Assembly: GCA_030600505.1 (NCBI GenBank)
Contig: JAUVLY010000001.1
Span: 1-35,687, forward strand
Reading direction: 5' to 3'
DNA length: 35,687 nt
Source: Candidatus Falkowbacteria bacterium
GTDB taxonomy: Bacteria; Patescibacteriota; Patescibacteriia; Patescibacteriales; UBA12075
The notes beneath the pieces are model-generated. The model made no database searches and was not told the origin of the DNA. It saw only the letters and a list, made by a program, of their open reading frames with translations. Shown here piece after piece: positions 25,220 through 35,161 of this stretch (the stretch's first letter is position 1; each line of letters begins with the position of its first letter). The position numbers and the translations under genes were made by a program.

Positions 25220-25996
25220 ATGCCCACACTTTACATTGTTGCCACGCCAATTGGTAACTTAGAAGATATTAGTATGAGAGCGCTTCGCATTTTGGGCGAA
25301 GTTGATTTTATATTATGCGAAGATACGCGGGTGACCGCTAAGCTGCTTTCGCATTACAGTGTTAAAACCCCGACCATTTCTTATCACCAGCATTCCAGTG
25401 AAAAAAAACAAGCGCGTATTTTAAATTTACTTAAAGACGGCAATAGCTTGGCTCTGGTAAGTGACGCCGGTACACCCGGGATATCCGACCCGGGCGGCAA
25501 GCTGGTGCAAGCGGTGATTGAAAAATTTAATGCGTCTGTACGGGTTGAATCAGTGCCTGGGCCATCTGCCGTAACCGCCGCTTTGTCCATTTCCGGTATC
25601 CCGACCGACAAATATGTGTTTATGGGTTTTCCGCCCCACAAAAAGGGCCGCCAAACTTTTATTGAACGGATTACTGATTCAATTTACCCGGTAGTGGTCT
25701 ATGAATCCAAACACCGGATTATTAAATTTTTAGAAGAATTAAAAGATTTAAATAAAAAAATCATTAAAAAAAATCAGGCAATCGACGATTCTGTAGAGGT
25801 GCGCCATGGCGCGTCTAAAAAGAAAAAAGAATTAAAATTGCAAAAGCGCACTCCGGTTACATCAGTCGTGGTTTGCCGCGAGCTTAGTAAAATGCACGAA
25901 ACCGTTTATCGCGGCGGCCTGGATCATATTACCGAGCAGATAAAAAATAATCAAGACGACCAAAAAGGGGAGTTTGTCGTGATAGTTGGGAAATAA
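25220..25996 (+). CDS. rsmI: 16S rRNA (cytidine1402-2'-O)-methyltransferase RsmI
   Basis: LYIVATPIGNLEDISMRALRILGEVDFILCEDTRVTAKLL, SDAGTPGISDPG and VPGPSAVTAAL. 258 aa with a Lys-rich insertion near residues 185-215. Confidence 0.9.
   Translation: MPTLYIVATPIGNLEDISMRALRILGEVDFILCEDTRVTAKLLSHYSVKTPTISYHQHSSEKKQARILNLLKDGNSLALVSDAGTPGISDPGGKLVQAVIEKFNASVRVESVPGPSAVTAALSISGIPTDKYVFMGFPPHKKGRQTFIERITDSIYPVVVYESKHRIIKFLEELKDLNKKIIKKNQAIDDSVEVRHGASKKKKELKLQKRTPVTSVVVCRELSKMHETVYRGGLDHITEQIKNNQDDQKGEFVVIVGK
25793..25819 (+). repeat. GTAGAG-headed palindromic (REP-like) element, in frame within rsmI
   Basis: GTAGAGGT-GCGCCATGGCGC-GTCTAAA encodes VEVRHGASK. It has the same GTAGAG...GTCTA frame as 34006-34032 and 34806-34833. 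Confidence 0.6.
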
Positions 25997-33699: not shown

Positions 33700-34032
<333 letters not shown>

Positions 34033-34101
34033 GTGATTATTTAGTATTTTTACGGATGGGAGGTGAATTTCGCCTCTCAGTGTTAGAATATTAATAACCC
34101 C

Positions 34102-34195
34102 GTCATTCTGAACCCACGAAGTGGGTGAAGAATCCCGTCGAAAACATATTAACGTTATCATCGAGATCCTTCGTCGCTTTGCTCCTCAGGATGAC
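34102..34195. repeat. inverted pair of GTCATYCTGA...GAAGRATC elements between atpE and atpF
   Basis: 34102-34134 reads GTCATTCTGAACCCACGAAGTGGGTGAAGAATC and is itself a hairpin. The reverse complement of 34165-34195 reads GTCATCCTGAGGAGCAAAGCGACGAAGGATC. Confidence 0.6.
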
Positions 34196-34756: not shown

Positions 34757-35161
34757 ATGAGAAAAACAAGCAAACAATACGCCAACGCGTTATATAACAG
34801 CGTCTGTAGAGACGAGGCACTGCCTCGTCTAAGTATCGTTATCCAGGCCTTTGTTGAGATTTTGATTGCTGACAATATGATTAACCAGGCAGATAAAATA
34901 ATTAAAGAATTCATTAAAATTTGGAACAAGGAGAAGGGGATAGTGGAGGCAAATATTAAATCAACCAGAGAGCTGGATGAAGCGCAAATAAAATCTTTGA
35001 ATATATATATAAAGAAATTAGCCAAAGCCAGAATAGTAGAAATAAAAACCGCCGAGGACAAGAGTTTGCTCGGCGGGATTGTGATTCGTTATGGCGACAA
35101 GGTTCTGGACGCTAGCTTAAAGAACAGGCTAATAAATCTAAGACAAGAAATAAAGAAATAA
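34757..35161 (+). CDS. atpH: F0F1 ATP synthase subunit delta (short OSCP-like)
   Basis: 134 aa. N-terminus KQYANALYN. C-terminus GGIVIRYGDKVLDASLKNRLINL is typical of delta. Operon position between b and alpha. Confidence 0.8.
   Translation: MRKTSKQYANALYNSVCRDEALPRLSIVIQAFVEILIADNMINQADKIIKEFIKIWNKEKGIVEANIKSTRELDEAQIKSLNIYIKKLAKARIVEIKTAEDKSLLGGIVIRYGDKVLDASLKNRLINLRQEIKK
34806..34833 (+). repeat. GTAGAG-headed palindromic (REP-like) element, in frame within atpH
   Basis: GTAG-AGACGAGGCA-C-TGCCTCGTCT-AAG is a perfect 10-bp stem and encodes part of SVCRDEALPRLS. Confidence 0.65.

Follow-up and report, generated by a model that had tools for sequence, protein, structure and literature searches.

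GTAG-footed palindromes in rsmI, atpE and atpH of a Falkowbacteria genome as probable decayed members of a dispersed double-foot REP family

The stretch of DNA considered here (the window) comprises positions 1 to 35,687 of contig JAUVLY010000001.1 of Candidatus Falkowbacteria bacterium (GenBank assembly GCA_030600505.1), 35,687 nucleotides in all, and holds on its forward strand three short palindromes headed by the tetranucleotide GTAG, one within rsmI, one at the end of atpE and one within atpH. These very probably represent decayed members of a dispersed family of 28-bp 'double-foot' repetitive extragenic palindromic (REP) elements associated with a REP-associated tyrosine transposase (RAYT). 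The source genome, denoted G000, amounts to 887,681 bp in 153 contigs and was compared with a set of 41 relatives.

Three palindromes in rsmI, atpE and atpH

The gene rsmI (25220..25996, + strand) encodes a 16S rRNA 2'-O-methyltransferase of the TP_methylase fold (Pfam PF00590, E = 2.8e-30; PDB 5HW4 RsmI, E = 1.5e-43). Its palindrome, a worn single-foot copy with the structure GTAGAGGT-GCGCCATGGCGC-GTCT (25793..25816, + strand), supplies the eight codons VEVRHGAS; the slightly longer stretch 25793-25819 reads GTAGAGGT GCGCCATGGCGC GTCT AAA and is translated in phase 0 of the 258-aa RsmI open reading frame (ORF) as V192-EVRHGAS-K200. The second copy (34006..34029, + strand) has the single-foot structure GTAG-AGAC-TTGATTTATCAA-GTCT and forms a hairpin in the 3' untranslated region of atpE (33797..34009, + strand; Pfam PF00137, E = 2e-16), the gene of the ATP synthase c subunit. 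Here 34006-34032 is GTAGAGAC TTGATTTATCAA GTCT AGG, GTAGAGAC being the GTAG-AGAC head, and the stop codon of atpE is the TAG of the element itself at 34007-34009. The third copy, again with a single foot (GTAGAGAC-GAGGCACTGCCTC-GTCT; 34806..34830, + strand), has a 13-nt core with one extra base and lies within atpH (34757..35161, + strand; Pfam PF00213, E = 1.6e-24), which encodes a short, 134-aa form of the ATP synthase delta/OSCP subunit. The sequence of 34806-34833, GTAGAGAC GAGGCA-C-TGCCTC GTCT AAG, forms a 10-bp stem and encodes CRDEALPRLS, the segment CRDEALPRL using the second open phase of the element, unlike the V-E-T phase described below. A preliminary description of the window had located the three palindromes, and their coordinates, sequences and frames were all reproduced from the sequence.

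Folded as single-stranded DNA, the three sites (in the order rsmI, atpE, atpH) give -5.1, -6.2 and -9.9 kcal/mol (z = -2.1, -4.1 and -4.6), with AGAC/GTCT forming the outer part of the stem in the atpE and atpH copies. The rsmI copy has two mismatches in its head, and the atpH copy one surplus base. The atpE hairpin was also considered as an intrinsic terminator, a role that was rejected because no terminator is called on the + strand at 34006-34032 and the tail AGGGTGATTA lacks a T run.

At the same codon position of rsmI, the element occurs in two genomes of the same genus (G001, G002) and in one of another genus (G008), i.e., in 4 of 30 orthologues, and it is absent from the remaining 26. 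The cores at this orthologous site in the four genomes are GCGCCATGGCGC, GCGCCGCGGCGT, GCGATTTATCGC and GTGCCACGGCGC, with 6/6, 5/6, 5/6 and 4/6 paired positions, and in G002 the contig ends at the element, which splits rsmI. The linker that hosts it has 41 residues, compared with 9 in E. coli RsmI (5HW4; alignment gap between query residues 174 and 216). The element is missing from all 26 metagenomic RsmI loci with both flanking motifs identified, where 31-78 residues separate these motifs. The atpH element is confined to G000 and G002, with one stem mismatch in the latter, and is absent from 28 other orthologues; these proteins measure 133-136 aa and have a charged loop of near-equal length at the site, so that the net gain is one codon. 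The earlier view of lineage-specific insertions of 9-10 codons consequently fits rsmI, where eight codons stand in a lineage-specific linker, and fails for atpH, where an existing loop gained a single codon. In neither protein is the peptide segment conserved in orthologues that lack the palindrome.

The proposal that the element defines the end of atpE did not hold. In all 27 relatives with a matched atpE the protein ends on the corresponding residue, the stop codon being TAA or TAG; the position of the stop is thus an ancestral one, which the element adjoins or re-uses. A degenerate orthologue of the element, GTAGAAAC-GTGATTTATCAC-GCTT, exists in G001. The window copies are older than the split of the G000 species from its nearest relatives. 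The genes concerned had further been called essential, of which the in-frame presence in housekeeping genes stands; the essentiality of rsmI does not, since RsmI is not known to be essential in E. coli.

A dispersed family in G000 and its relatives

The frame first proposed for the three sites, GTAGAG-RY...GTCTA-R, matches three times in the window compared with 0.00 times in 100 shuffles of the window, and to this extent the shared frame is real; it was, on the other hand, over-fitted to these sites, as it finds 0 further matches in the 852 kb of G000 outside the window. A genome-wide scan with the exact pattern accordingly resembled a refutation of the family, and relaxing the frame reversed that outcome. 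Neither the trailing A(A/G) nor the RY positions characterize the family, whose true frame is GTAG + AGAC...GTCT (+ CTAC) around a 12-nt core. The relaxed search, GTAGAGAC-N12-GTCT with a palindromic core, yields 14 strand-hits in G000, corresponding to 11 distinct strict elements, as against 0, 0, 1, 0 and 0 in five shuffled genomes; the frequency is far above chance. Three worn copies, one in atpH (13-nt core), one at C129:8898 (decayed core) and one that is the third uvrC unit, bring the total to about 14 on 8 contigs. Perfect 28-bp palindromes ending in CTAC are found at C28:1992, C29:5875 and C129:11110. An unbiased count leads to the same head: among 159 near-perfect 20-nt palindromes of G000, GTAG is the top 4-nt 5' flank, with 19/318 occurrences compared with about 0.65 expected from its share of 0.2% among the tetramers of the genome. 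A GT[AG]G tetranucleotide stands directly 5' of the stem-loop in the window copies and in all other members of the family. The complete unit, as proposed here, would begin with the GTAG foot and end with the CTAC foot, the 20-nt palindrome between them comprising AGAC, a palindromic core of 12 nt and GTCT.

With the same relaxed frame, 25 of the 41 relatives gave up to 68 strand-hits, compared with 0-2 for the reversed pattern that served as control, and the CTAC foot is present in most of these copies. In G023 a single dominant double-foot core, GCGCCGCGGCGC, accounts for more than half of the 68 strand-hits. The exact 28-mer with the core GAGGCATGCCTC occurs in at least 118 stretches of a species-representative genome collection, the hosts among the matches listed being Ignavibacteriota, Bacteroidota, Gammaproteobacteria, several groups of the candidate phyla radiation (CPR), Omnitrophota, Planctomycetota and Acidobacteriota. 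The cores are not entirely 'unrelated', as had been thought: they fall into subfamilies that recur across many genomes (GAGGCATGCCTC, GCGCC(A/G)(T/C)GGCGC, xxGATTTATCxx).

The suggestion that a GTAG-headed, REP-like family resides in coding sequence and in frame is supported by both the copy excess and the in-frame copies in ORFs. Long ORFs contain 9 of the approximately 14 copies of G000; these ORFs encode RsmI, AtpH, UvrC, an N-terminal extension of ribosomal protein S11, the C-terminal tail of RpoA, the tail of an S1-like protein, and proteins of 683 and 2432 aa. UvrC of G000 contains four units, one full 28-mer and a tandem array of three 33-nt units with differing cores. The two clearly intergenic copies (C29:5875 and C129:11110) each occupy the loop of a terminator-like hairpin with a T run behind it; at these positions the relatives have plain terminators. 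Double-foot copies embedded in longer perfect palindromes of the form A-run stem...stem T-run, each with unique flanks, were also seen at L123, L128, L130, L133, L135, L141 and L143 of G023 and at C29:5875; they look as though placed precisely in the middle of bidirectional terminator hairpins, or as though extended by mirroring. The low-complexity tails of S11, RpoA and the S1-like protein that host REPs contain, in addition, translated tandem repeats of 7-8 nt (CAGACAG / AGAAAACAGAAAGCAGA), found on C140 (5' extension of rpsK and 3' tail of rpoA), on C117 and at C110:1900-1930; intergenic ones exist too.

Strand and reading phase of the genic copies are strongly biased. Single-foot copies in ORFs have GTAG at the 5' end of the sense strand in 8/8 cases in G000, 3/3 in G023 and 14/15 in the other relatives, a ratio of 25:1 in which some of the sites are orthologous. 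When 85 copies of one exact 28-mer were sampled from many phyla, 42 were located in ORFs of at least 150 aa, where the V-E-T phase is used by 35 and the R-D phase by 7, and the translated forms are V-E-T-x4-S or R-D-x4-V-S-T.

Comparison of orthologous sites reveals both empty positions and exchanged cores. G001 has no element at the UvrC and S11 sites. In the RpoA tail, the cores of G000 (GAAGCATGCTTC) and G002 (GCGCCGCGGCGT) differ at 9/12 positions, compared with 5 differences in the 46 nt upstream. One UvrC site is occupied by a REP in G000, by a palindrome of another family in G002 and by nothing in G001. This second family, GGARCTWAGYTCC-(4-8 nt)-GGARCTWAGYTCC with each arm palindromic, occurs in or beside the RAYT-like genes L041, L042, L047, L048 and L053, and in uvrC of G002 (L085) it takes the exact position of the GTAGAGAC REP of G000. 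An attempt to fix the exact inserted unit and its target from the empty sites was given up, as the linkers are of low complexity with ambiguous alignments and C117 is not alignable.

RAYT-like genes and their REPs

As the preliminary description had it, the window contains no RAYT gene. A profile search of the genome contigs with PF01797 and NCBIfam REP_Tyr_transpos (curated cut-off 80 bits) found three RAYT-like loci in G000, all outside the window, on contigs C104, C6 and C110. The first is a 260-aa ORF with NHIHG, WQPRF and RDYIIKNP motifs (C104:16-795, - strand) that scores 46 bits with REP_Tyr_transpos, i.e., below the cut-off; its match to PDB 4ER8 was not significant (E = 0.88). The special feature of this gene is its middle third, which consists of 4-5 in-frame REPs between the HuH and Tyr motifs, translated into the peptide repeats PVNLINQIPTD. 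These REPs have the forms GT[AG]G-GAAT-TTGATTTATCAA-ATTC-AC and GTAG-GCATTTGATAAATCAAATGC-CTAC, the core being identical to that of the atpE copy. Contig C6 opens with a C-terminal RAYT fragment that is 95% identical to C104, and the REP array probably breaks the assembly at C104/C6. The third locus, a gene of 184 aa on C110, scores 78 bits and aligns with 4ER8 (E = 0.002), including a WQPRFW-type segment.

G003, G015 and G018 encode homologues of the C104 protein, with 33-36% identity along the entire sequence (E = 1e-40 to 1e-48). Each of these homologues carries, at the same place, one in-frame GTAGAGAC double-foot REP, read as RRD/GRD/CRD....VST, and the core within the gene is the commonest or the only core of the respective genome; the RAYT of G023 contains decayed copies of the dominant core of that genome. 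Elements and a C104-type RAYT are both present in 19 genomes and both missing in 14, with 6 and 2 discordant cases; the Fisher probability of p = 9e-5 is overstated, as the relatives are not independent. The weak-match RAYT-like genes of relatives are mostly accompanied by the other palindrome type, GGARCTWAGYTCC.

Origin of the elements and comparison with known systems

How such elements might spread can be outlined by analogy with E. coli TnpA_REP and the IS200/IS605 family. An element on the lagging-strand template would, while single-stranded, fold into a DNA hairpin, and a RAYT of the HuH/Tyr (Y1) type may recognize the GTAG foot together with the stem, cut and rejoin the DNA, with the result that copies would spread or replace one another. 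The survivors would be copies read in one of the two phases free of stops and placed where the protein tolerates them, in surface linkers or tails, and many copies would lie in genes because the genomes of this lineage are compact. RAYT catalysis and the single-stranded intermediate are borrowed from the known systems, the inserts are presumed to be neutral, and the signs of mobility, all indirect, are the empty orthologous sites and the co-occurrence with RAYT genes.

Several observations weigh against a RAYT-borne REP family of this kind. Transposition itself was not observed. A 3' CTAC foot is missing from every window copy, its place being taken by AAAA, AGGG and AAGT; these copies are classed here as single-foot derivatives of a double-foot family. 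No GTAGAGAC copy resides in or beside the RAYT genes of G000 itself, and the inner foot of the C104 REPs is GAAT/ATTC, not AGAC/GTCT. The RAYT gene on C110 is bounded on both sides by an unrelated repeat, CGGGCGGGACGCCCGGCTCAAAC, present in 22-28 copies. Six relatives, all draft metagenome-assembled genomes, have elements yet no detectable C104-type RAYT, and eight strong PF01797 Y1 loci of the IS200 type in relatives have no GTAGAGAC at their ends and possess their own hairpins there instead. Furthermore, the 28-nt unit is not a multiple of three, as the genic 24-nt form is, and simple cut-and-paste alone fails to explain the in-frame excess. Finally, the palindromy covers the four central bases, which would be the loop in a hairpin, and selection for a hairpin does not account for that. 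Since the window copies are common to sister species, lack the second foot and are defective, they are probably old, partly decayed and immobile relics with tolerated peptides. The repeat around the C110 gene (GCGAC..TTCGCGGGCGGGACGCCCGGCTCAAAC, at C110:1-143 and 696-815) is in direct orientation and has no GTAG at its foot; it probably belongs, as cognate repeat, to a second RAYT subclass.

Alternatively, the hairpins could have been kept, or have arisen locally, as RNA or DNA structures, their spread being secondary; possible roles are an mRNA 3' stabilizer or termination modulator at atpE, pause sites in rsmI and atpH, and parts of terminators elsewhere. The two intergenic copies placed exactly in terminator-like loops before the T run, the A-run/T-run inverted repeats that flank many G023 copies, and the compensated change in an orthologous atpE pair (TTGAT..ATCAA versus GTGAT..ATCAC) can all be read in this way, as can the nearly exclusive sense-strand orientation of single-foot genic copies, which would place the hairpin in the mRNA, and an effect of REPs near stop codons on translation, reported in work that PMC6006769 cites as its reference 30. 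We nonetheless regard local function as unlikely, as one 28-mer is found unchanged in unrelated genes of at least seven phyla, for which no single local role fits, orthologous copies decay (pairing in rsmI drops to 4/6, and the atpH stem of G002 has a mismatch), and 26/30 RsmI and 28/30 AtpH orthologues do without the element. Spread without a dedicated transposase, with template switching during replication making and renewing the palindromes by perfecting quasi-palindromes, gene conversion or unequal recombination between the 8-nt frames contributing the remainder, and the RAYT genes being no more than frequent insertion targets, would account for palindromy that includes the central bases and often reaches unique flanks. 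It would likewise suit the partial 3'-half duplicates beside copies (UvrC site 1 in G000, S11 in G002), the in-frame tandem arrays of 30-33-nt units with differing cores in UvrC of G000, L297 and L306, the divergent cores in the RpoA tail and the six genomes without a RAYT. Template switching cannot, however, seed new loci or account for one and the same 28-mer in distant phyla, a strict GTAG foot and an invariant core length of 12 nt speak for protein recognition, and the identity of the RAYT-internal core with the commonest core of the genome is a published mark of cognate REP-RAYT pairs (PMC6006769); we therefore consider this origin quite improbable. Least credible by far is a chance likeness of three unrelated hairpins or a protein-level motif, VETxxxxS. 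The exact pattern was indeed defined after the sites had been viewed and matches nothing outside the window, and most genic copies do have the V-E-T...S reading; but the relaxed frame with palindromic core is found about 50 times as often as in shuffled sequence, the residues between VET and S vary freely while the palindromy of the DNA is maintained, and the shuffles, the flank count that picks GTAG, the relatives, and the intergenic and second-phase copies together rule this reading out.

Returning to the RAYT-associated family, the strand and phase bias, the core turnover, and the length and symmetry of the unit are compatible with two histories, a RAYT acting again and again at an anchored GTAG site, or tandem insertion with later deletion between conserved frames. 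It is conceivable, if rather doubtful, that the genic copies are anchored 'hairpin cassettes' repeatedly re-used by the RAYT on the lagging-strand template. A sense-strand GTAG foot with its stem would then remain a substrate for core exchange or for the addition of tandem units at a fixed codon position, and the foot on the opposite strand would be free to decay. Such re-use would explain the 25:1 sense bias, the 5:1 preference for the V-E-T phase, the unrelated cores at the orthologous sites in the RpoA tail and rsmI, and the tandem arrays in UvrC; if true, it would amount to a means by which a transposase supplies the housekeeping proteins of reduced genomes with short, variable peptide loops.

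The closest published relatives were described by Quentin, Siguier, Chandler and Fichant in 2018 (PMC6006769), who defined the 'double-foot' REP by 5' GT[AG]G and 3' C[TC]AC and reported, for TnpA_REP subclass 2.4, REPs in frame within the transposase gene, in the interval between HuH and Tyr. The present system shares the GT[AG]G foot with its C[TC]AC complement at the far end of a long hairpin, the in-frame REPs between HuH and Tyr (4-5 in C104 of G000, one each in G003, G015 and G018, decayed ones in G023) and the scatter of the class over many phyla. It differs in that the window copies have the 5' foot only and the G000 RAYT carries a sister subtype with the inner foot GAAT instead of AGAC. 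The C104-type RAYT is thus a candidate member of subclass 2.4, likened to it by its REP features and not by phylogeny. Earlier, Di Nocera, De Gregorio and Rocco (2013) had noted that GTAG REPs frequently supply, with their ends, a stop codon (TAG) and that REPs reside inside ORFs in several species, notably in excision-repair (uvr) genes (PMC3733652). Both traits recur here, in the TAG stop of atpE and in whole REPs within ORFs, including the excision-repair gene uvrC with its four units, as do dimers and clusters encoding 20-30 residues. Their families are mostly extragenic, whereas about half of the 85 sampled 28-mers of the present family fall in ORFs of at least 150 aa, and no statement on phase or strand preference was found in PMC3733652. 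Published precedents thus exist for intragenic GTAG REPs, for TAG stops that REPs supply and for double-foot REPs.

Rickettsia palindromic elements (RPE), studied by Ogata, Claverie and colleagues and considered here as works cited in PMC3733652, are the textbook example of palindromic repeats that are translated, and are similar in being selfish palindromes that a reduced genome carries in frame within its housekeeping genes, tolerated there in surface loops. They measure about 100-150 bp or are CGTC-tagged (RPE-4, RPE-6) and have no associated RAYT, in contrast to the 24-28-bp, GTAG-footed units of the present family, and membership among them was rejected on unit size and the GTAG foot. The REPs and bacterial interspersed mosaic elements of E. 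coli with TnpA_REP (RayT; PDB 4ER8) share the GTAG at the hairpin foot and a monomeric HuH/Tyr enzyme; they are imperfect, bulged, single-footed, GC-rich and extragenic, in contrast to the perfect palindromes with a fixed 12-nt core, often genic, of the family described here.

REP/RAYT systems are best known from proteobacteria, cyanobacteria and Bacteroidota. The present case extends them to the tiny, gene-dense genomes of CPR/Patescibacteria, where REPs end up translated in the core genes rsmI, atpH, uvrC, rpsK and rpoA. A literature search for REP together with Patescibacteria returned nothing relevant, and a full-text search for GTAGAGAC gave primer-type matches only. As far as could be found, the sense-strand and V-E-T-phase bias and the core swaps at fixed orthologous sites are unreported, and the interest of the case, which is modest, rests chiefly on this asymmetry and on the core turnover; both could help to clarify the action of RAYTs in vivo. 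From a practical point of view, V-E-T-x4-S or R-D-x4-V-S-T peptides are to be expected as REP footprints in annotation, assemblies break at these repeats (as in the split rsmI of G002), and the linker segments need masking in alignments and phylogenies.

The surroundings of the atpE copy are crowded with further structures. The 197-nt spacer between atpE and atpF is mostly taken up by the REP and a MITE-like composite (miniature inverted-repeat transposable element) at 34102-34195. This composite, GTCATYCTGA...TCAGRATGAC with modular hairpins and a length of 72-130 bp, has at least 61 copies genome-wide, many of them with centres CCCGTGGATGTAGAGACGAGATC that contain GTGG and GTAGAGAC. A conserved hairpin, TTTTACGGACTGCCCC...GGGGCAGAGGTAAGATTATTAAA, follows atpE at about 34046-34095 and has orthologues in the spacers of L057, L059, L061, L063, L064, L068, L076 and L082; in many relatives it reaches the ribosome-binding region of atpF. 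In G000 the REP precedes this hairpin, and the MITE-like element lies between the hairpin and atpF. In the atp operon of G001 (L072), AtpE is 90% identical to that of G000 and AtpH 43%, the latter grouping with sequences of genus g15, a discrepancy that may reflect either very fast evolution of AtpH or a recombinant or mis-binned operon.

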